64,000 nucleotides of DNA from Candidatus Woesearchaeota archaeon (GCA_964623495.1 CAZUTV010000001.1:44682-108681); one strand, 5' to 3'; shown: positions 1-50,169, counted from the first letter of the stretch. Numbers and translations: made by a program. Notes: generated from the sequence alone by a model not told the origin.

Positions 1-2025
1 TTTCTCCTCAGCAAATTAGCATTGCTAACAACAGTTATTGAAGATGCAGCCATAGCAATTTCTGCAATTATTGGATGAAGAATTCCTCCAACAGCTAAAG
101 GAATAGCAACAACATTATAGGCAAAAGCCCAGAACAAGTTTTGTTTTATTTTTGAAAAAGTGGCTTTGCTTAATCTTATAGCAGCAACAACTCCCAACAA
201 AGAGCCTCTCGCTAATACTAAATCTCCTGCTTCTATTGCAATATCTGTTCCTGTTCCCATTGCAATTCCAACATTTGCCTGCTTTAATGCAGGAGCGTCA
301 TTAATTCCATCCCCAATAAATGCAACCATGCCTCTTTTTTGCAGTTCTATTACTTTATTTGCCTTGTCTTCTGGAAGAACATTTGCAATTACTTCTTTAA
401 TTCCAACTTCCTTAGCAATTGCTTTGGCAGTTCTTTCATTGTCTCCTGTAATCATAACTGTTTTATATCCTGCATAATTAAGCATTGAAATCGCTTTCAT
501 TGAGTCATCTTTAACAGCATCAGCAATCCCAATAATCCCAAGAACTTTTTTGTTTTCGGCAACAATTACAGCAGTATATCCAGAATCTTCAAATTCTTCA
601 ATATTCTTTTCAAGACCCTTTAAAAGTATGCCCTTTTCTTTCATTAATGTTGAGTTTCCAATAATAATATTCTTGCTTCCAATCTTTCCTTCAACACCCC
701 GTCCCCTTAAGATTTTGAATGATTTAACTTCTTTGTATCTCTTTAATCCTGCTTTTTGCACAATGGCCTTAGATAACGGATGCTCGCTTAGTTTTTCAAG
801 GCTTCCAGCAATTTCAAGCAAATAAGATTCTTTGACTTTAGAATAAATCTGCCTTACTTCTGGCTTTCCTTTTGTTATTGTTCCTGTTTTATCGAAAACA
901 ACATATTTTATCTCTTTCATTGTCTGGATTGCCTCTCCCTTTCTAATTAAAATTCCTTTTTTAGCTCCCATTCCGCTTCCCACAGTTAAAGCAATAGGAA
1001 CTGCAAGTCCTAAAGCACACGGACAAGCGATTACAAGAACAGAAATTGCAACCCCAATAGACCGCCCTATTTCTCCATTAAAGTACCACCAGCCGAAAAA
1101 TGTCAAAACAGCAACAACAAGTATTGATGGAACAAATATGCTTGTTATGTAATCTGCTGTTTTTTGTATTGGCACTTTTGTTCCTTGCGCTTCTTCAACC
1201 AATTCTATAATATGGGCAAGGAAAGTGTCTTTCCCTACTTTTGTGGTTTTAATATACAATATCCCATCTTGATTTAAGGTAGCTCCAATTACCGGACTTC
1301 CTTTTAATTTGTCAATAGGAAGACTTTCTCCGGTAACCATTGATTCATCAACAGCGCTCTCTCCCCTGACTACTATCCCATCTGTTGGAATCTTTTCCCC
1401 CGGCTTAACAATTAAAACATCTCCAACAACAACTTCTGAAATTGGGATTTCAACTTCTTCTTTGCCTCGCAAAACACGGGCATTTTTAGCTCCAAGTTCA
1501 AGCAGTTTTTTTATTTCTTGAGACGCTCTTCCTCTTGCCTTGGCTTCAATATATTTTCCTGTAATAAATATAGCCATAATCATTGCAGAAACCCCGGAAT
1601 AATCATTAATCTCCATAAAAAAGGTTAGTATTCCAGTTAGGTAAGCAATTATTGTTCCTAAAGAAATTAAAGAGTCCATATTAAAGTAAAATGTAAATAA
1701 CCCCCTAAATCCAGACTTTAAGGTTGAAAAGCCAAATATAAAAACAACAGGAAACCCAAGAATAAGTAAAATAGCAATTAGCCACTCTTCTGGCAAAAAC
1801 ATTAGATCAAAAACTCTCATAAGGACCATTATTATTGCAATAGGAATTGCAAAGATCCAACTGCCGACAAGTTTTCTTTTCCAGCCTCTGATTTCAGAAT
1901 CTTCTGCCGGCTTTGAATGATCATGATTATGGTTCATTCTAAGTTCTGGTTTGGGAATCTTTCTAAAAGGTTCAATTTCGTGATTTTTATTGTTCACTCT
2001 ATCATCTATTCTAAAGTGTTCCATT
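1..2025 (-). CDS. copA: Cu(I)-translocating P1B-type ATPase; 3' end runs past the window edge, which is why no ORF was reported
   Basis: Reverse-strand translation gives [16 protein letters not shown] (phosphorylation DKTGT), [18 protein letters not shown] and a His-rich N-terminus MNHNHDH. The plus-strand ORFs 160-2138 are its antisense. Confidence 0.85.
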
Positions 2026-2034
2026 TGATGTTTC

Positions 2035-2244
2035 TTAATCAATGCTTGTTACTCTGTATCCAACTTTTGCAACAGCTTTCTTTAATTCTTCATCACTTGC
2101 TTTTTCATCAGCTTCAACAAATGCCTTTTTTCCTATAACACTAACGCTGACTTCCTTGACTCCAGAAATCTTTTTCAAGCTTCTTTCAATGTTTGTTGCA
2201 CAGCTAGCACAATGCATTCCTTCTATGTTTATTTTTTTCTTCAT
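2035..2244 (-). CDS. copZ: HMA-domain copper chaperone (CopZ-like)
   Basis: [15 protein letters not shown] metal-binding MxCxxC motif; 69 aa ferredoxin-like HMA length; lies 10 nt upstream of copA. Confidence 0.8.
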
Positions 2245-2261
2245 TTTTTTATTTTATAAAT

Positions 2262-2498
2262 TTATCTTTTGTTGACTTGTTTTACTAACCAAACTACCCC
2301 TAATATGATAAATATCAATATTCCGATATTTGTAATGTAGCTAATTAATTGTCCATAGCCATATCCCCCAGATCCATAGTTCCAGTTCCCCATCATGTTG
2401 CAAATTCCCCAGCCGGAATTTCCTGTCCATGGAATCATTGCTATTGCTAATAAAATTACAGCCCCTAAAACTATCCAAACTATTCTTTGGTCTTTCAT
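2262..2498 (-). CDS. small two-TM protein with Gly/Tyr/Met/Cys-rich extracytoplasmic loop (candidate Cu-binding)
   Basis: TM-loop-TM topology; loop GNSGWGICNMMGNWNYGSGGYGYG; paralogue of 2572-2808. Confidence 0.5.
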   Translation of the reverse strand: MKDQRIVWIVLGAVILLAIAMIPWTGNSGWGICNMMGNWNYGSGGYGYGQLISYITNIGILIFIILGVVWLVKQVNKR

Positions 2499-2571
2499 TT
2501 TAATTTTTTAATTAATCTCCTATTTGAAAACTTTATTGTGAATTGTTGGTTTGGGAACCTTTTCAAAAGGT

Positions 2572-2808
2572 TCATTTTTGGATCTGCTTTACTAGCCAGA
2601 CAATGAATAAAACCGCCAAAACCAAAATAATTATATTAAATATCCATCCAAAAATCCAACCAGCTCCGTATCCATAGTTGCCAGACATCATACCCCACAT
2701 TCCACCAAAGTTGCCATATCCCATCATCCCATATCCAAATCCGCCAAAAAGCAACAAGATTAGGACGACCAAGACAACTATTAGGATAGTGTTATTATCC
2801 TCTTTCAT
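2572..2808 (-). CDS. small two-TM protein with Gly/Tyr/Met-rich loop, paralogue of 2262-2498
   Basis: Loop GGFGYGMMGYGNFGGMWGMMSGNYGYGAGW; same architecture and C-terminal WLVKQ motif. Confidence 0.5.
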   Translation of the reverse strand: MKEDNNTILIVVLVVLILLLFGGFGYGMMGYGNFGGMWGMMSGNYGYGAGWIFGWIFNIIILVLAVLFIVWLVKQIQK

Positions 2809-2809
2809 C

Positions 2810-3178
2810 TTATTTGCTTCCTCCTTTCATGTTATGCAATATGTGTATGCAATACTGCGACATGTGCTTATCAATAAGCTTCATTATTGGCTTTATTGTT
2901 TCTTCATTTAAGGAATAATAAATAAATTTCCCATCTCTTTCTGTTTTCACAAACCCGCATTGCCTTAATCTAGCAAGATCATGGGAAATTGCAGTTTGAT
3001 CCATTTTAAGTTCTCTCATTATTTCGCTAACATTCTTTTTCTCATTTCTCAATAAATTTATAATCTTTAGCCTTGACTCAGAAACCAATGTTCCAAAGAA
3101 GACTTTGTAAGCCCCATAAACTTCATTTTCATGAAACCCTTCTTTATGAACGTGATGTAACATGTTTTTATTAATCAT
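2810..3178 (-). CDS. ArsR/SmtB-family metalloregulator
   Basis: wHTH LKIINLLRNEKKNVSEIMRELKMDQTAISHDLARLRQCGFV. Confidence 0.75.
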   Translation of the reverse strand: MINKNMLHHVHKEGFHENEVYGAYKVFFGTLVSESRLKIINLLRNEKKNVSEIMRELKMDQTAISHDLARLRQCGFVKTERDGKFIYYSLNEETIKPIMKLIDKHMSQYCIHILHNMKGGSK

Positions 3179-3223
3179 ATGATAATCCCATACATATGTA
3201 TTTATAAATGTTTCGGTGTTTGA

Positions 3224-3679
3224 CTAGCCATTTTTTTTGAAAATCCATAAGCCAATAGCTAAAATTATCGCAATAAAGACTTGAATTTCAATTCCCCCAA
3301 AAGGAAGGCTTGCAAACGAAAACCCTATTCCCAAAGCACTAAAAATCATGGGAAACAAGCCAGTAACGCACAAAGGGCACACCCCAACAATTAATCCTCC
3401 CAAAGTTCCAACCCCCGCTGTTGCAACTGCTTTTCTGCATTTTTGCCTTTCTTTATATTTAACAAAAGCCGTTACAGCATTAATGGAAACTAGAATCCCG
3501 ATGACTAGAGTTAAAATTATCGAAATTCCAAGTTTAAGCCAGTTGACTGTGTCCGCATAAATTATAAACGACTTAATAGTGTTGTAAAAACCGCTAAAAA
3601 TAACATTCAAAATTATATAAACAATAAAAATTAAAAAAATCCAATAAATATATGGTTTTTTGAAAATTTTCATAATCAC
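3224..3679 (-). CDS. 4-TM membrane protein with CPLC motif (putative metal/thiol handling)
   Basis: GVCPLCVTG inside a TM helix; hydrophobic profile. Confidence 0.45.
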   Translation of the reverse strand: MIMKIFKKPYIYWIFLIFIVYIILNVIFSGFYNTIKSFIIYADTVNWLKLGISIILTLVIGILVSINAVTAFVKYKERQKCRKAVATAGVGTLGGLIVGVCPLCVTGLFPMIFSALGIGFSFASLPFGGIEIQVFIAIILAIGLWIFKKNG

Positions 3680-4074
3680 TCAACGATCAGCTTTCCAGAA
3701 CCCATTCCCATGGAGCACATAAAGACATAAGTTCCTTTTTCTTCAGGCGTAAATTCTACATAATCTTTTGGTGTTGGCAGTTGTTTGCTGATTCCTAGGG
3801 CCCTTATATTAAAACTTCTATAACATCCGTAAACACTCTTATCTAGGTAAATTCTTACAGGCAAACCGGCCTTTACAGTTACGGTATTAGGGTAATAATT
3901 AAAATTCTGCATGCTTAAGACAATTTCCTGAACATTTCCATCCACTATTCCCCCGTTTCCAGAAGGTTTCAAATCTTCGTTTCCTTGCCCGCTAACAAAA
4001 ATAAAGTATCCTAATACTACCACCGCAATTACCACTATGAAAAGCGTTATCTTCTTCATCCTCCGCAGCCACAC
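3676..4074 (-). CDS. secreted cupredoxin-like domain protein
   Basis: Signal anchor, then beta-rich domain ending FMCSMGMGSGKLIV (Cys/Met ligand pattern of cupredoxin-like Cu proteins). Confidence 0.55.
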   Translation of the reverse strand: MWLRRMKKITLFIVVIAVVVLGYFIFVSGQGNEDLKPSGNGGIVDGNVQEIVLSMQNFNYYPNTVTVKAGLPVRIYLDKSVYGCYRSFNIRALGISKQLPTPKDYVEFTPEEKGTYVFMCSMGMGSGKLIVE

Positions 4075-4526
4075 CCTCCGCCATTCGCCATTCCGCAGCT
4101 TGATCCGGTTTGGGTTTTTTGTTCAACGTAAGCTGGTTTTGTGCCGTCATTCTCCAGAACAGTAAAAGACCCTTGGTACATGTTCATTGAGCATGCTATA
4201 TTGAAAGTTCCTGCTTTATTTGGAGTAAATTCTATTACATTATCTGAGCTAGATAAGCTCTTTCTTATATTAAATGCAGAGATAACAACCGATTTAGAAC
4301 AACCAGGCATTTTGCTTATATCTGCTTCTATTCTTACAGGAGTATCTTTCTTGATTGTTGAAGGACTTAAGATATAGTTTCCTCCTTCGACAGAGAGCTT
4401 GACAATCTGCACATTTTCATTTGCAATAACATTCCCTGTTGTTGCGCTTCCTGAATTTGTGAATACAAATACTGCAGCCACTAAAACAATCATTCCTATT
4501 CCAATAATTGCTGTTTTGTTTTTCAT
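4056..4526 (-). CDS. secreted cupredoxin-like protein with C-terminal Cys/Gly tail
   Basis: Paralogue of 3676-4074 (IACSMNMYQGSFTV); tail SSCGMANGGGCGCGG; overlaps the downstream gene by 19 nt. Confidence 0.55.
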   Translation of the reverse strand: MKNKTAIIGIGMIVLVAAVFVFTNSGSATTGNVIANENVQIVKLSVEGGNYILSPSTIKKDTPVRIEADISKMPGCSKSVVISAFNIRKSLSSSDNVIEFTPNKAGTFNIACSMNMYQGSFTVLENDGTKPAYVEQKTQTGSSCGMANGGGCGCGG

Positions 4527-4593
4527 CTTTTATTTACCTCCTTCTCTTTAAATCTGGTTTCCAATTGATTTAAATGCTTTGATGCAATCAGTT

Positions 4594-5277
4594 TCATCCA
4601 AATAATGCACTCCTTGGTCCAAAAACCATAAGCCAGCTAGTAGCCAAGGTTAACACTAAACTGGTGACTATTGCTATAAAATGATCTTCCTTTACCTGCC
4701 TATCACTTTCTTTGGTTTCTGTAAATATCATGTAATTTAATGAGGCAAGAATCACAGTACATACCCCGAAGATGATAATGCTTGCAATTTTCAGATTGTC
4801 ATTTATTAACATTACTGCAGTCATTGCGCCCATCCAGCCACCCATAAAACCCGCCATTATACCTTCCATGAATCCCATTACTCCACAGCAAGATCCCATC
4901 CAGATTCCAAGGACAATCCCTACAGCCATTCCAAAAACTCCCCCAATAAACATCCCGTTAGTTGCTCCCATGAAATATCCTGCCAAAAACCCGGCTATCA
5001 TTCCAATAGTCATCCCAACCATCATGCCAGACATGCACGCCATTTGCTTATATGCCCTAATCTGTTTTATTGTTGGAATAACGAGCGCATAGCTTAAGAC
5101 CGCAAATAAAAGGTAAAATCCGTATTTAGGAATAAAATTCTCGACATATCTTAATTTAAAATAATAAAATAAGGCAAGGACTATCAGAGATGTAATAAGT
5201 GAGTAAAATATGGTTTTAATTAACTCTCCTTCTACCCTATTTCCATTCAATTCTTTAGTGAATTCTTTAAACGACAT
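4594..5277 (-). CDS. membrane protein with Met/Gly-zipper TM helices
   Basis: CMSGMMVGMTIGMIAGFLAGYFMGATNGMFIGGVFGMAVGIVLGIWMGSCCGVMGFMEGIMAGFMGGWMGAM. Confidence 0.5.
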   Translation of the reverse strand: MSFKEFTKELNGNRVEGELIKTIFYSLITSLIVLALFYYFKLRYVENFIPKYGFYLLFAVLSYALVIPTIKQIRAYKQMACMSGMMVGMTIGMIAGFLAGYFMGATNGMFIGGVFGMAVGIVLGIWMGSCCGVMGFMEGIMAGFMGGWMGAMTAVMLINDNLKIASIIIFGVCTVILASLNYMIFTETKESDRQVKEDHFIAIVTSLVLTLATSWLMVFGPRSALFG

Positions 5278-5329
5278 GATATTATGGCTTTTTATTCATT
5301 TAAATAATTTATGAAGTAACTGGTTTCAA

Positions 5330-5359
5330 GGTATAATAAAATAAAAATAAAATAAAAAA
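5330..5359 (-). terminator. oligo-T terminator downstream of the DsbA-like gene
   Basis: Minus strand reads ATTTTTTATTTTATTTTTATTTTATT immediately after the stop. Confidence 0.35.
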
Positions 5360-6061
5360 TTATTTTGCAAGCTCTGCGTCAATTGCCTGCTTGAATACTT
5401 CGTATGGTTGTGCACCGCTTATGAATGCCCCATTAACAAAAAACCCGGGAGTTCCCTGAACCCCATAGCTTTGCCCGTCAGTCATGTCTTTTCTTATTTC
5501 GCCTGCCATCTGTCCAGAGTCAAGACAGCTGTTGAACTTGCCTATATTGAGCCCTATCTGCTGAGCATAAGCCTTCAAGCTATTCACATCTAATGCTTTC
5601 TGGTTTGTAAAAAGCTTGTCATGCATTTCATAATATTTTCCCTGCTCTCCAGCACACTCCGCAGCTTCTGCTGCTTTTTGAGCATTAGGGTGGAAGCTTA
5701 ATGGAAAGTCTCTGAAAACAATTCTTACTTTTCCGGTATCAACATATTCCTTCTTTATTTGTGGATATGTCTGGCTGAAGTGCCTACCGCAATACGGACA
5801 TTCATAGTCACTGAATTCAACCATTGTTACTTCTGCATCTTTGTTGCCAAGAATGGCGTCGTCATCAATGCTTACCTGAACTTTTGAAGGCTCAGGACTA
5901 GGTACACTATCTCCTGCAACTGCATTGCCTGTCACGCTTCCTCCACTCATTCCAAATCCGCCAGTGAATAGGCTTATGACAAATAATGCTGCAAAAAGGA
6001 AGGTTCCTATCTGCCACATAGTGTGTTTTTTAACAGTTATTGATTCTTCTCTTTGTTCCAT
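5360..6061 (-). CDS. DsbA-like thiol:disulfide oxidoreductase, membrane-anchored
   Basis: Thioredoxin-fold CPYC active site (FSDYECPYCGRHF); N-terminal TM; likely start at internal MWQIG. Confidence 0.75.
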   Translation of the reverse strand: MEQREESITVKKHTMWQIGTFLFAALFVISLFTGGFGMSGGSVTGNAVAGDSVPSPEPSKVQVSIDDDAILGNKDAEVTMVEFSDYECPYCGRHFSQTYPQIKKEYVDTGKVRIVFRDFPLSFHPNAQKAAEAAECAGEQGKYYEMHDKLFTNQKALDVNSLKAYAQQIGLNIGKFNSCLDSGQMAGEIRKDMTDGQSYGVQGTPGFFVNGAFISGAQPYEVFKQAIDAELAK

Positions 6062-6125
6062 CTTTTTTACCTCCTTACATCTTTTTGAATAAAAAGTGTT
6101 CTTGGTTTACCAAGTCCGGACAAAC

Positions 6126-6599
6126 TTAGTCCTTTAGGACTACGATGTTATTCATCCCCCTTCGTTTTCTTTCAATCAACTGCTTGGACTCTAGCTTGTC
6201 AAGAAGTCTCGTCATCTTAACCTTGCCAATTTGAAGTTTTTCCATTACATCTGCCTGAAACATTGCATTTCCTTCTTTAGATAATAAATCAACAACAAGT
6301 TTCTCTTCTTTTTCTAAGCCAGAAATATCAAGCTTCTTCTTCTTTTCTGTAATATTCTTCACAACAATTTTTTCTTTTGGTTTTGAAAACATAATGAATA
6401 AGCCTATAATAACGATAACTCCTATAATTGTTACACTAATCCAAGTCTGAGTTCTTATTGTCCCATACATGCCACAACTCGGGCCGTGCGTGCAGGTTTG
6501 ACTAACTATATCTTTTAATCCAAAATTGAATAAAAGTACAACTGCTAGCATTATTACTGCAATTCCTAAGATTAACCAACCAACTTGTTTATTTTCCAT
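6126..6599 (-). CDS. membrane-tethered winged-helix regulator
   Basis: Two N-terminal TM segments flanking CTHGPSCGMYG, then C-terminal wHTH MTRLLDKLESKQLIERKRRGMNNIVVL. Confidence 0.55.
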   Translation of the reverse strand: MENKQVGWLILGIAVIMLAVVLLFNFGLKDIVSQTCTHGPSCGMYGTIRTQTWISVTIIGVIVIIGLFIMFSKPKEKIVVKNITEKKKKLDISGLEKEEKLVVDLLSKEGNAMFQADVMEKLQIGKVKMTRLLDKLESKQLIERKRRGMNNIVVLKD

Positions 6600-6891
6600 T
6601 TTTTTTGTTTAACCTCTTTAGCAATTCATTCATGTCTCTTTTACTCATTCCGTGAACCATACATCCTTCTTCAATTGTTTCAGCCATGGACATTGGACAT
6701 CCGATACAGTGAAACCCAATATCAAAAAGCAGGTCTGCGGCTTCTGGATTTAGGTACATTATCTCTGCAATCCTTGTGTCTTTAGTAATTTCTTTCTGTA
6801 CGGCAGTGCTTTGTTTAGACATTTTGGGTGAATCCTTAGTTGTCACAACAACATTTATGGCCCTTATTGCAGTTGCAGTCCTCTCCATCAC
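6589..6891 (-). CDS. DUF1858-type redox-disulfide domain protein (start probably at internal MSKQ, 6822)
   Basis: FHCIGCPMSMAETIEEGCMVHG motif. Confidence 0.6.
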   Translation of the reverse strand: MMERTATAIRAINVVVTTKDSPKMSKQSTAVQKEITKDTRIAEIMYLNPEAADLLFDIGFHCIGCPMSMAETIEEGCMVHGMSKRDMNELLKRLNKKNGK

Positions 6892-6940
6892 AGCAGTCTT
6901 TCTCTTTGTCTTTCTTTTGCTTTGGTTTTTTCTTCTCCAT
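6836..6940 (-). CDS. candidate 34-aa Lys-rich / Cys-rich metallothionein-like peptide
   Basis: MEKKKPKQKKDKEKDCCDGEDCNCNKGHKCCCDN; it is an internal-Met sub-ORF of the 71-aa track ORF 6836-7051 and sits between the DUF1858 gene and the ArsR gene. Confidence 0.25.
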   Translation of the reverse strand: MEKKKPKQKKDKEKDCCDGEDCNCNKGHKCCCDN

Positions 6941-7001
6941 CTTTCGTTTCCTTGTTTTTGTAAAATGAGTTATGCGGAATCTCTTGATTCCAAATTTTCC
7001 A

Positions 7002-7307
7002 TTAGTGACATTCGCAATTGCAATTAGGTTTGTTACAACAACATCTTGCATGTTTATCTGTCATCTCAAGCATTGGGATCACTGTTTTACTGAGAGAATA
7101 TATCCTTTCCTTGCCTTTCTGCTTAGAATTGACGATTCTGCATTTTTTTAGGGATGCAAGCGCATGAGAAAGCTTGCTTTGTTCAACTTTAAGCTCCTTT
7201 ACAAGCTCGCTAACATTTTTGTCCTTATTTCTCAAACTAAGAATTATCTCAATCTTTAACGGATTAGCAAGGTTCGTAAAAAATGTACAATAAAAGTGTT
7301 TCTGCAT
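7002..7307 (-). CDS. ArsR/SmtB-family regulator with C-terminal Cys cluster
   Basis: HTH NVSELVKELKVEQSKLSHALASLKKCRIV; tail CCCNKPNCNCECH. Confidence 0.7.
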   Translation of the reverse strand: MQKHFYCTFFTNLANPLKIEIILSLRNKDKNVSELVKELKVEQSKLSHALASLKKCRIVNSKQKGKERIYSLSKTVIPMLEMTDKHARCCCNKPNCNCECH

Positions 7308-7449
7308 ATATGAATCCTAGTTCATATGACTTTATAAATCTTGCGAAGATAAAGTTAAAAAATGAATAAGTAACAACTTTTAATTAAGTACGCCTTTATA
7401 GTTACAACAGTATACAAATATTTATAAATCAAAAAGAAAGAGTATTTTC

Positions 7450-7938
7450 ATGAGTTCAAGCACAGGGTTGATAATTGTTGTTACAATCGCTTTAATTGCC
7501 GTAGTTCTTATAGGCGGCTATTTATTGCTAGGCGATTTTTCAAGTTATGATGAAGATCAAGATTATGTTGCTCCTAGCAATTCTTTCGATCAAGAGCTTT
7601 CTAACCTAAGAGAAGCAAATTTTCAATTGAGCATGCAGCTTAGCAATGCCCAAAACGAAATTAAGAACTTAAAATCTCAGCAAAACCAATACTCTCAAGC
7701 ATCAACCGATGACAGAAAATGCAGCAACCTTGATGATGACTATGATGAAATTAAGGAAGACATAGATGATAAAGAAGAGGATATTGAAGACTTAGAGGAT
7801 GAAATAGACAGGAAAATACTCAATAACGAAACAGTGACTGACTTGCAAAACAGATTAGACAACTTATACGAAGATTTAGATGACCTTGAAAATGATCTTG
7901 ATGACATCAAGGACGATTTAGACAGATATAACTGCTGA
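7450..7938 (+). CDS. N-terminal TM anchor plus acidic coiled-coil protein
   Basis: TM helix, then highly acidic heptad-like region (DDDYDEIKEDIDDKEEDIEDLEDEID). Confidence 0.45.
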   Translation: MSSSTGLIIVVTIALIAVVLIGGYLLLGDFSSYDEDQDYVAPSNSFDQELSNLREANFQLSMQLSNAQNEIKNLKSQQNQYSQASTDDRKCSNLDDDYDEIKEDIDDKEEDIEDLEDEIDRKILNNETVTDLQNRLDNLYEDLDDLENDLDDIKDDLDRYNC

Positions 7939-7941
7939 ATT

Positions 7942-9084
7942 CTAAAAAGAAAATCTTCTTAACTTACTAATTATCTTTTCCAACTTCTCAAGAACAAAAT
8001 CCAATTCTTCTTTTGTAGTATACTTGCTTATACTGATCCTTACGCTTGATGCAATTTCCTTGTCGGTTCGTCCGATTGCCTTTAATACGTGACTTTTGGC
8101 GCCAGTATGCGAACTGCAAGCACTTCCAGTAGATGTATAAATTCCTTCATTCTCTAAATACCCTCCAAGCGCTTCTCCTTCAACTTCTTCAATACATAAA
8201 TTGATATTATTGGCTAGTCTATTTTTTCCAGAAGGGCCGTTTAACTCAACTCTTTCAATTTTCAAGACTTTACTTAAAAAATAATCTCTTAACTCTTCCA
8301 TTCTTTTAACGTCTTTAGAATTAGCAATTTCAACAGCCTTGGCAAACCCAACAATCCCAGAAACATTTTCAGTCCCTGATCTGAAGCCTCTTTCATGTCC
8401 ACCCCCATGGAAAAATGGATCAATTTTGATTCCTTCTCTTATATACAAAGCTCCAACACCCTTAGGACCGTGAATTTTGTGCCCGTTAAGAGTCATTAAG
8501 TCAATATTCATTTTTCTTACATCTATTGGGACCTTAGTAAAGCTCTGGCACGCATCTGTATGGAATAAAACCCCTTTTTTCTTGCAGATTTTTCCAATTT
8601 CTTCAAGATTTTGTATGGTTCCTATCTCATTGTTTCCGTGAATTATTGAAACAAGAAATGTTTTGTCAGTAATTGCCTTTTCAACATCTTTGGGATTAAC
8701 AAAACCCTCTGAATCAACATCTAAATAAGTAACTTTAGCAACATGCTTTTCAAGATATCTGCAAGTGTTCATAACACAATCATGATCGATTTTGGTTGTT
8801 ATTATATGGTTTTTTGAAGGATAATTCGCATAACAAAGTCCTGTAATTGCAAAATTGTTGCTTTCAGTTCCTCCTGATGTAAAAACAATCTCGTTAGCCT
8901 TTGCATTTATTGCTTTGGCAATAATTTTTCTAGAATTCTCTAAAGCCTGTTTAGCTTGTTGCCCAAAAATATGAACACTCGAAGCATTTCCATATTTTTC
9001 ATTAAAGTAAGGAGTCATTTCTCTAAGCACTTGATCATCTACTTTAGTTGTAGCTGCATTGTCTAGATATATTGTCTTGGGCAT
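7942..9084 (-). CDS. cysteine desulfurase (class V aminotransferase, NifS/IscS/SufS-like)
   Basis: PLP-lysine region LNGHKIHGPKGVGALY; SGGTESN; active-site Cys loop TGSACSS. Confidence 0.85.
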   Translation of the reverse strand: MPKTIYLDNAATTKVDDQVLREMTPYFNEKYGNASSVHIFGQQAKQALENSRKIIAKAINAKANEIVFTSGGTESNNFAITGLCYANYPSKNHIITTKIDHDCVMNTCRYLEKHVAKVTYLDVDSEGFVNPKDVEKAITDKTFLVSIIHGNNEIGTIQNLEEIGKICKKKGVLFHTDACQSFTKVPIDVRKMNIDLMTLNGHKIHGPKGVGALYIREGIKIDPFFHGGGHERGFRSGTENVSGIVGFAKAVEIANSKDVKRMEELRDYFLSKVLKIERVELNGPSGKNRLANNINLCIEEVEGEALGGYLENEGIYTSTGSACSSHTGAKSHVLKAIGRTDKEIASSVRISISKYTTKEELDFVLEKLEKIISKLRRFSF

Positions 9085-16814: not shown

Positions 16815-16885
16815 TGGGCACGGAGGGAATCGAACCCCCATCTCCTGGGCTGGAGCCAGGTAGTCTGCCATTAGCCTACGCACCC
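16815..16885 (-). tRNA. tRNA-Trp (CCA)
   Basis: Cloverleaf on the reverse strand: acceptor GGGTGCG/CGTGCCC, anticodon loop CTCCAGC, T-loop TTCGATT; CCA not encoded. Confidence 0.8.
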
Positions 16886-24006: not shown

Positions 24007-24077
24007 TGGACCCGCCGAGAATTGAACTCAGGTCTCCTGACTGCCAGCCAGGCATAATACCACTATACTACAGGCCC
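24007..24077 (-). tRNA. tRNA-Ala (GGC)
   Basis: Acceptor with G3:U70 identity pair, anticodon loop CTGGCAG, T-loop TTCAATT. Confidence 0.85.
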
Positions 24078-27411: not shown

Positions 27412-27483
27412 GGTTTATTAGACCAGTCATTTTGACCTCCAAAAATTTAATTCAGAAACAAAGCGAGGCTTTGAGCATGCAAG

Positions 27484-27555
27484 GGCGGAAGGAGAGAATC
27501 GAACTCTCGTCTCTCGAGCCACAGTCGAGCGTACTGCCATTATACTACAACCGCC
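27484..27555 (-). tRNA. tRNA-His (GUG) with genomically encoded G-1
   Basis: Anticodon stem CTCGA/TCGAG, loop CTGTGGC; 8-bp acceptor including G-1:C73; two U-U oppositions at the stem base. Confidence 0.8.
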
Positions 27556-49919: not shown

Positions 49920-49990
49920 ACTCCGTAAATGGCCCTAAGCAGGATCGAACTGCTGACTACTCGGTGTAAACGAGTCGTTTTGCCACTAGA
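49920..49990 (-). tRNA. tRNA-Val (UAC)
   Basis: Perfect acceptor GGCCCTA/TAGGGCC, anticodon loop TTTACAC, T-arm AGCAG-TTCGATC-CTGCT. Confidence 0.85.
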
Positions 49991-50169
49991 CTATAGGGCC
50001 TGAAAACCTGCGGTTTTCGATCCATGAAGCAACTTCCTTTCTTTGCCTCTGATGGAAGTTTTGATCCCGAAAACCTACAGATGTAAAACATAAAAACACC
50101 TTTTAAAACTTACTAAAACAAGTAAACTGAAAAATCAGAAAAAAATAGAAAAAAGAAAAATAAAAAAGC

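Follow-up and report, generated by a model that had tools for sequence, protein, structure and literature searches.

A predicted copper-homeostasis locus of a DPANN archaeon with CupA-type cupredoxins and a candidate Cu(I)-relay membrane protein

Gene content and conservation of the locus

The locus analysed here occupies positions 1-7310 of a 64,000-nucleotide (nt) stretch of DNA from a Candidatus Woesearchaeota archaeon (GCA_964623495.1, CAZUTV010000001.1:44682-108681). The whole stretch is referred to as the window and all coordinates are counted from its first letter. ORF calling and profile searches filled 1-7310 with 13 consecutive open reading frames (ORFs), every one on the minus strand, on which the promoter elements given below also lie. 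A preliminary description of this DNA had proposed a copper and thiol stress module; the genes and motifs that it listed were all recovered in place and on the minus strand using ORF calls, Pfam, NCBIfam and direct reading, and its interpretation of the locus as a whole is partly supported. Two small membrane proteins (sm78a and sm78b), a 34-residue micro-ORF and the CupA identity of the cupredoxins were absent from it.

The anchor gene of the module, MetGly (4594-5277), encodes a 227-residue membrane protein modelled with seven helices. Next to it lie two genes for CupA-type cupredoxins, Cup2 (4056-4526; PF13473, E 5.8e-9; C...CSMNM, with a C-terminal Gly/Cys tail) and the membrane-anchored Cup1 (3676-4074; PF13473, E 1e-11; C...CSMGM), and then the gene for a CPLC membrane protein (3224-3679; motif G-x-CPLC-x-TG-xx-P), which overlaps the Cup1 stop codon and has about four transmembrane (TM) helices with Cys81 placed on the cytosolic side.

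An sm78-CopZ-CopA unit follows, with ArsR1 (2810-3178; ArsR/SmtB family; HTH_5, E 4e-15) as its first gene. CopA (1-2024) is cut at its C-terminal end by the start of the window. It matches the Cu P-type ATPase model TIGR01511 with an E value of 2e-174 (581 bits against a cut-off of 397), and its translation carries the P1B-1 Cu(I) signature, namely CPC (CPCALG), YN (AYNVV), MAASS (MxxSS) and DKTGT. The Pfam scan gave E1-E2_ATPase and Hydrolase only, with neither an HMA nor a cupredoxin domain; these domains and the translation confirm the earlier account of a CPC-type pump with a His-rich N-terminus and no fused HMA. The N-terminus is short (MEH...MNHNHDH) and its character is conserved in orthologues: across the N-terminal regions of 56 of them the last 45 residues contain a mean of 2.7 His, and 51 of the 56 have no CxxC. 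CopZ (2035-2244; PF00403, E 1.2e-14) combines the HMA fold with the MxCxxC motif (GMHCASC) of cytosolic HMA Cu(I) chaperones. The paralogues sm78a (2262-2498) and sm78b (2572-2808) each have 78 residues and two TM helices; the loop is Gly/Met/Tyr-rich in sm78a and reads GMMG..GMM.G.YG.G..FGW in sm78b, where it is predicted to face outward. The family comprises 48 orthologous ORFs, commonly situated between ArsR1 and CopZ, and neither window protein matched a Pfam or NCBIfam family above threshold. The Cys and His residues of ArsR1 are conserved among its orthologues.

The pump, chaperone and repressors of this unit are ordinary. Known CopZ/CopA-ArsR operons share with it the MxCxxC HMA chaperone, the CPC/YN/MxxSS ATPase, the ArsR-family gene, with predicted autoregulation, at the head and a palindromic promoter element. 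They differ in that the CopA of the window has a short His-rich N-terminus in place of an HMA domain, and in the one or two sm78 proteins that are inserted here between regulator and CopZ.

For analysis of synteny, 80 loci from species-representative genomes were picked from 467 confirmed MetGly matches, and all window proteins were mapped onto them; the denominators given below (69 or 37) are the loci with enough flanking sequence. A cupredoxin gene lies within 3 kb of MetGly in 66 of 69 eligible loci (96%). CopA is found on the strand of MetGly, within -4 to +6.7 kb, in 33 of 37, and CopZ, adjoining CopA, in 32 of 37. Accessory genes, present in 32-54% of loci, are sm78 (20/37), a gene for a TM-tethered winged helix-turn-helix (wHTH) protein (19/37; not more than 1.5 kb upstream of MetGly in 20/69), ArsR1 (17/37, always immediately 5' of sm78/CopZ/CopA) and the CPLC gene (12/37). 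In its smallest form, for example in L026 and L031, the module is a tight head-to-tail MetGly-Cup-CopZ-CopA array with tiny gaps. The clustering of the core genes is far beyond chance.

The copper module of the preliminary description therefore stands as regards its core, which is co-conserved over the 80 species genomes and in distant lineages of DPANN and the candidate phyla radiation (CPR). The comparison with related genomes that it had called for did not recover a uniform island: genes for DsbA (6/37), DUF1858 (3/37) and ArsR2 (2/37) are found near MetGly in 5-16% of loci, counts that rule them out as core members, and this part of the locus is a looser neighbourhood. One contig, L069 (CAYIKL010000016.1), is labelled 'uncultured Methanosarcinales archaeon' and carries a typical Pacearchaeota-type MetGly-Cup-sm78-CopZ-CopA arrangement, with a MetGly 62% identical to the window protein; it may be mis-binned or transferred.

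The MetGly family and its cupredoxin partners

Searches with MetGly returned 1374 homologues. The 120 listed are mostly of 225-230 residues and 64-100% identical to the window protein, and their source names include Candidatus Pacearchaeota, Woesearchaeota or Nanoarchaeota archaeon, among others, which places the window in a DPANN archaeon of the Pacearchaeota/Nanoarchaeota type; a plasmid search found no plasmid homologue. In a 20-sequence alignment C81, C130, C131 and E138 are invariant, as are many of the Met and Gly residues. The Met/Gly-zipper composition noted in the preliminary description is real: in the segment 81-160, 45% of the 80 residues are Met (16) or Gly (20). From 84 to 132 every fourth residue is Gly, which gives a (GxxxG)n zipper in TM3-5, and a stripe of Met residues (134, 137, 141, 145, 149, 152 and 156) runs along TM5. 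The AlphaFold2 (AF2) model has seven long helices, with a predicted local distance difference test score (pLDDT) of 78 and a predicted template-modelling score (pTM) of 0.78.

MetGly matched no Pfam family, and NCBIfam gave only noise below threshold. No relative in the PDB, CTR1 included, was found by sequence or by fold, which leaves homology to CTR, Mer or Cus proteins unsupported; the earlier caution over CTR homology was well placed. Assignment to the CTR (SLC31) channels, which are defined by a three-TM subunit homologous to CTR1, was rejected for a protein with seven helices that matches no solved structure. The likeness to CTR is one of composition and logic only, and consists of Met-lined TM helices packed via GxxxG, thiol ligands on the cytosolic side and a likely hand-off to an HMA chaperone.

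A profile search of 1.84 billion representatives gave 617 MetGly relatives, and the best 126 of at least 200 residues were analysed for fusions. An HMA domain is present at the extreme N-terminal end in 47 of the 126, and a CupA-like cupredoxin is joined to the C-terminus with no intervening TM in two; in one (P0360) a histidine kinase (HisKA_3/HATPase) follows TM6. When 34 distant members were scanned, family models matched the HMA, cupredoxin or kinase parts only. The fusions with a named source come from Aenigmarchaeota, Micrarchaeota and one CPR bacterium. Since its fused partners are HMA, cupredoxin and kinase domains, the membrane domain is tied to soft-metal handling independently of synteny. 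The fusions also imply a predicted N-in/C-out topology: the HMA domain must be inside, six TMs would return the kinase to the inside and the seventh would exit, so that the C-terminus, and with it a fused cupredoxin, would lie outside. With this topology the three Cys residues would be located where TM3 and TM5 end on the cytosolic side.

Distant versions of the module vary in their additional genes. The order in L082 is a CopY-like repressor, a BlaR-like protein, HMA::MetGly, CopZ, DsbD_TM, Cup, Cup, CopA, DsbA and DsbA; its head module (6550-7982), consisting of Penicillinase_R (CopY/BlaI-like) and Peptidase_M56 (BlaR1-like) genes, replaces ArsR or DUF7343. In L083, from Magasanikbacteria (CPR), the genes are VKOR, an unannotated gene, MetGly::cupredoxin, CopZ and CopA. 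L084 has DUF7343, CopZ, HMA::MetGly, Cup, ArsR, CopA, DUF7343, DsbA and DsbA, and L085, from Micrarchaeota, has DUF7343, CopZ, HMA::MetGly, CopA and Cup, with a NifS-like gene farther along. MetGly is not a general carrier of the metal-binding domain missing from HMA-less CopA proteins: in L082, L084 and L085 both HMA::MetGly and CopA have an HMA domain. Because distant loci carry DsbA, DsbD_TM or VKOR genes, the linkage to extracytoplasmic thiol redox chemistry is facultative but recurrent.

Both cupredoxins match pneumococcal CupA (PDB entries 2MRY and 4F2E) in phmmer searches of the PDB, Cup1 with an E value of 6.7e-9 and Cup2 with 5.9e-9, and both also match 4F2F, the cupredoxin metal-binding domain of pneumococcal CopA (E of about 1e-5). 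The first Cys and the C-x-M-x-M ligands of Cup1 and Cup2 align residue for residue with those of CupA, and the pattern C-x(25-50)-CxMxM occurs in 92 of 94 cupredoxin ORFs. By these alignments Cup1 and Cup2 are homologues of pneumococcal CupA. The earlier label 'cupredoxin-like' is thereby replaced, as the PDB matches and ligands identify them as CupA-type Cu(I) chaperones and not as generic blue-copper proteins. The reported tail on one paralogue, GGGCGCGG, exists and belongs to Cup2; in this subfamily (CSMNM) it is kept as C-terminal SCG..GGCGCGG in 26 of 27 orthologues and may act as a flexible CxC arm for Cu(I) transfer.

A single hydrophobic N-terminal anchor segment was found in 91 cupredoxin orthologues. 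Lys and Arg are richer on its N-terminal flank in 39 Cup1 ORFs against five, and in 20 Cup2 ORFs against one, and by the positive-inside rule together with the MetGly fusions the cupredoxin domains are predicted to face outward, with the N-terminus in. This anchor charge bias, the MetGly::cupredoxin fusions and the recurring DsbA/DsbD_TM/VKOR genes of distant versions support the 'periplasm-oriented' thiol flavour that the preliminary description had seen in the locus. Between the two cupredoxin genes of a related module, L080 1806-2180 encodes a Cys-rich protein with repeated CxxxC spacing (...CASCEDICEKCADDCEKFEDEKMKSCAEFCKSCAEACGKM), which may be a helical bundle of the copper-storage type.

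The resemblance to Streptococcus pneumoniae CupA (4F2E/2MRY) and to the N-terminal domain of its CopA (4F2F) extends to the Cupredoxin_1 fold, one TM anchor at the N-terminus, the binuclear Cu(I) site with its Cys...Cys-x-Met-x-Met ligands and the position of the gene beside a Cu(I) P1B ATPase. CupA was described in a 2020 review as confined to a few streptococci, and according to that review and one later paper the pneumococcal protein acts at the cytosolic face. The archaeal domain, in contrast, is predicted to be outward; the archaeal CopA has no cupredoxin domain and a classical CopZ is present as well; the cupredoxin comes as two paralogues, of which one bears a conserved CxC tail; and the constant partner is MetGly, which is not reported from pneumococci. 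A CupA-like cytosolic orientation with hand-off to a cupredoxin domain of CopA does not fit the locus, given the outward prediction and a CopA without such a domain.

In CopC/CopD (fused in YcnJ) and MerP/MerT, as here, a small outward metal-binding domain is paired, and at times fused, with a polytopic membrane protein. As in MerT/MerF, the intramembrane soft ligands of MetGly include a vicinal Cys pair, and some MetGly relatives carry a fused HMA domain. The membrane domains, however, have no detectable homology, the NCBIfam Mer and CopZ models match the HMA part only, and the outward partner of MetGly is a CupA-type cupredoxin rather than CopC or MerP.

These likenesses bear on the view that the genes are neighbours by convenience, with only CopZ, CopA and ArsR1 concerned with copper and the others serving thiol/redox functions or Hg, Ag or Cd. 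A vicinal Cys pair in a TM helix is a typical feature of Mer transporters, the HMA parts of MetGly fusions also score against MerP/MerTP models, ArsR2 orthologues are mostly found beside NifS, and DsbA and DUF1858 are seldom adjacent. Against this, the linkage of MetGly and cupredoxin to CopZ-CopA is 86-96% and survives across phyla, the cupredoxins retain the exact Cu(I) ligand set of CupA, CopA bears the P1B-1 Cu(I)/Ag(I) signature, and neither MerA nor MerR genes occur in the window region or the inspected loci. We regard such an assembly as very unlikely.

Promoter elements and accessory genes

The intergenic regions contain archaeal B-recognition element (BRE)/TATA elements, not sigma-70 promoters; a scan for sigma-70 promoters and terminators, which applied a bacterial model to an archaeal host, gave results near shuffle expectation. 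Direct reading of the ArsR1 promoter (3179-3223) showed a BRE/TATA element (GAAACATTTATAAATA) and, after it, a pair of CATATG boxes; the start codon is in the second box, and 25 of 36 orthologues have the same arrangement. A different element, the palindrome TGAAAC-NN-GTTTCA, is associated with MetGly. A search of 1.2 Mb of loci that allowed no more than one mismatch located 78 copies, among them 39 upstream of MetGly, 15 upstream of the wHTH gene and nine upstream of cupredoxins. It precedes MetGly in 37 of 76 loci, directly 5' of the TATA region, and in 22 of these it starts exactly 51 nt before the ATG. In the window a degenerate copy (TGAAACCAGTTACT, 5315-5328) abuts the TATA region and also begins exactly 51 nt before the MetGly ATG.

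A single operator for the whole island was ruled out, with CATATG boxes at ArsR1 promoters and TGAAAC-NN-GTTTCA at MetGly promoters. Because the two promoters carry different elements, the promoter sequences assign at least two regulons to the locus, with ArsR1 as the predicted regulator of sm78-CopZ-CopA and a second factor for MetGly-Cup(-CPLC). Co-regulation as one regulon, on which the preliminary description had made its module depend, thus fails, there being at least two promoter/operator types.

The candidate second factor is the TM-tethered wHTH protein (DUF7343; 6126-6599; PF24034, E 1.8e-8). Its layout is TM1, an outward loop with the motif C-x5-C-P-M-Y, TM2, a strongly basic segment and a cytosolic winged helix; the Cys pair of the loop is at least 90% conserved among 57 orthologues. 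The palindrome is present in 18 of 23 loci with an adjacent wHTH gene compared with 19 of 53 without (Fisher p 0.001), and a DUF7343 gene also adjoins the module in L084 and L085. The tethered wHTH most likely regulates MetGly-Cup(-CPLC) via the palindrome. The sequence TGAAACTAGTTTCA is a candidate target DNA for its soluble domain (residues ~85-157). Membrane one-component regulators of the ToxR/CadC type likewise combine a membrane-tethered DNA-binding domain with an extracytoplasmic sensing segment. The archaeal protein differs from them in having its wHTH C-terminal to two TMs, a short C-x5-C loop as sensing segment and a candidate operator, TGAAAC-NN-GTTTCA, that abuts an archaeal BRE/TATA.

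Alternatively, MetGly might sense or buffer Cu(I) within the membrane and act by signalling to the wHTH, or to a fused kinase, so that the cupredoxin and pump genes are switched on. The fusion of TM1-6 to a HisKA_3/HATPase kinase in P0360, the frequent adjacency of the wHTH gene to MetGly and the correlation of the conserved palindrome with that gene are consistent with such a role. The kinase fusion is, however, found in only one of 126 representatives, MetGly is linked more tightly to the cupredoxin (96%) than to the wHTH (~30-50%), a full-length identity of ~65-85% among the listed Pacearchaeota, Woesearchaeota and Nanoarchaeota homologues is unusual for a sensor input domain, and an outward Cys pair for sensing is already conserved in the wHTH itself. 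A sensory MetGly is in our judgement improbable.

The CPLC protein is representative of a family with 314 homologues, those with names being from Pacearchaeota, Woesearchaeota or Nanoarchaeota. The motif G-x-CPLC-x-TG-xx-P is invariant in 20 homologues, and a scan of 20 members found no Pfam domain. Where the gene occurs it mostly follows directly on a Cup1-type gene, and three loci have it upstream of MetGly. AF2 modelled the protein poorly (pLDDT 67, pTM 0.46). A relationship to CcdA/DsbD_TM was rejected after hhalign comparison with three DsbD_TM proteins from L082 gave a probability of 1.9%. The position of the CPLC gene is occupied in L082 by a DsbD_TM gene, and we propose, by analogy with DsbD_TM, a role for the CPLC protein in the handling of thiols or Cu(I).

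Upstream of MetGly is the gene for an accessory DsbA-like oxidoreductase (5360-6061; Thioredoxin_4, E 1e-38; DSBA, E 6e-23), which is membrane-anchored, is predicted to be outward and has the thioredoxin fold with a CxxC (CPYC); in L082 and L084, too, DsbA genes are found beside the module. Beyond the wHTH gene lie those for a cytosolic DUF1858/redox-disulfide protein with the motif CIGCP (6589-6891; PF08984, E 1e-17; TIGR03980, E 1e-20) and for ArsR2 (7002-7307; ArsR/SmtB family; HTH_5, E 5e-11; NF033788, E 2e-17, 62.8 bits, cut-off 55), with a Cys-rich tail RCCCNKPNCNCECH. Between these two is the putative 34-residue micro-ORF (6836-6940; MEKKKPKQKKDKEKDCCDGEDCNCNKGHKCCCDN), Lys-rich and then Cys-rich and metallothionein-like; on the source contig this region was called as a 71-residue gene. 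The CCC/CNC motifs of the micro-ORF recall the C-terminal tail of ArsR2, and a similar peptide, MKQKQKNHECEHDDKNCPCREDKNGKNKEKHKCECCG, is encoded between NifS and DUF1858 in L020 (19522-19653). The ArsR2 promoter region (7308-7341), read directly, contains a TATA element (TTTATAAAG) and, directly at the start codon, an inverted repeat, ATATGAA-N6-TTCATAT, which resembles ArsR/SmtB operators of the TGAA...TTCA type.

Five of eight ArsR2 orthologues adjoin NifS, and ArsR2 probably belongs to a NifS-linked unit and not to the Cu core. In loci L007, L008, L011, L015 and L022 an ArsR2 orthologue with a Cys-rich tail lies directly upstream of a NifS-like cysteine desulfurase gene. In the window (7002-9084) ArsR2 and the NifS-like gene are parted by a lineage-specific plus-strand gene (7450-7938), present in one of 81 loci, for an acidic coiled-coil protein with an N-terminal TM. 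The window has four tRNA genes on the minus strand, Trp-CCA (16815-16885), Ala-GGC (24007-24077), His-GTG (27483-27554) and Val-TAC (49930-50000); because none is nearby, the copper locus is not tRNA-flanked like a typical integrated island.

A proposed Cu(I) relay and its significance

The reading that we favour, and hold to be reasonably probable, is that the locus serves Cu(I) homeostasis, with MetGly binding Cu(I) or relaying it between cytosolic CopZ or HMA domains and outward CupA-like chaperones. The locus of this Pacearchaeota-like DPANN archaeon would consist of two adjacent transcription units and loosely linked thiol and iron-sulfur genes. Unit A, ArsR1-sm78b-sm78a-CopZ-CopA, would provide conventional detoxification by a repressor, a chaperone and a P1B-1 pump, and unit B, MetGly-Cup2-Cup1-CPLC, would be the conserved and new part. 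MetGly, oriented N-in/C-out, would bind Cu(I) at a tri-cysteine site (C81/C130/C131) at the cytosolic face and, in TM3-TM5, form a membrane-spanning Met ladder packed by the (GxxxG)n zipper. It would thereby link HMA chaperones (free CopZ here, a fused HMA elsewhere) to the outward membrane-anchored cupredoxins, with Cup1 and Cup2 predicted to bind Cu(I) via C...CxMxM and Cup2 also via its flexible CxC tail. Outward thiols may be managed by the CPLC protein here and by DsbD_TM, VKOR or DsbA in other lineages, and the membrane-tethered wHTH, with its outward C-x5-C loop, would regulate unit B through TGAAAC-NN-GTTTCA. We infer from the comparisons above the binding of Cu(I) by MetGly, its translocation and direction, the thiol role of the CPLC protein and the pairing of wHTH and palindrome.

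Several points weigh against this model. The functions of the MetGly, CPLC, sm78 and DUF7343 families are read from sequence and models, and it was from sequence periodicity only that C81, C130 and C131 were deduced to cluster in space and the Met ladder to be continuous. Loop 1-2 of MetGly, predicted to be outward, is fairly positive (2.9 K+R). The Cys motifs are retained in only ~55-60% of the distant representatives, and fusions to a cupredoxin (two of 126) or to a kinase (one of 126) are rare. For pneumococcal CupA a cytosolic site of action is described, opposite to the orientation predicted for Cup1 and Cup2. The palindrome copy in the window has two mismatches and is not significant alone. 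Apart from the invariant E138, no element for energy coupling is evident in MetGly. Lastly, a Cys3 site inside with Met sites outward would suit import better than unassisted export.

The last of these leads to the alternative that MetGly imports Cu and is functionally analogous to CopC/CopD or CTR, with the cupredoxins capturing Cu(I) that would pass along the Met ladder, following a gradient of affinity, to the Cys3 site and then to CopZ, and CopA either balancing the influx or supplying copper onward. Soft thioether sites across the membrane with high-affinity thiolates at the cytosolic face are the layout expected for energy-independent inward transfer, neither Pfam nor NCBIfam gave an ATPase or obvious coupling domain in MetGly, and an outward β-barrel Cu protein with a membrane protein, occasionally fused, mirrors CopC-CopD/YcnJ. 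In the minimal loci (L026, L031), however, MetGly stands head to tail with CopA, which would mean that importer and exporter are co-expressed; few cuproenzymes that would need supply are known in DPANN and CPR organisms; and N-terminal HMA fusions are best known from exporters. The operon partners of MetGly fit detoxification, and the Cys-inside/Met-across layout fits import. On balance a dedicated importer is rather unlikely. Returning to the relay, a fuller version of it is offered tentatively and with less than even confidence: MetGly would found a new family of Cu(I)-conducting 7-TM proteins, with a Met ladder and a Cys3 site, in ultrasmall DPANN archaea and at least one CPR bacterium, and would relay Cu(I) directly between a cytosolic HMA chaperone and an extracellular CupA-type cupredoxin under the control of a wHTH which, through its C-x5-C loop, senses copper/thiol stress outside the cell and binds TGAAAC-NN-GTTTCA.

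Copper handling in prokaryotes is thought to rest on few parts: P1B pumps, HMA chaperones, CopC/D, Cus and CTR-like channels. A literature search for a DPANN copper module found nothing relevant, and the MetGly family, the outward CupA-like pair and the wHTH/palindrome pairing are undescribed. The wHTH and the palindrome offer a testable regulator-operator pairing for a membrane-tethered archaeal transcription factor, and heterologous expression would allow all of the predictions made here to be tested without a culture of the organisms. CupA-type chaperones are common in DPANN archaea and present in at least one CPR genome, and they probably work outside the cell. MetGly represents an unannotated and highly conserved family and, given its neighbours and fusions, is a strong candidate for a new protein that transports or relays Cu(I).

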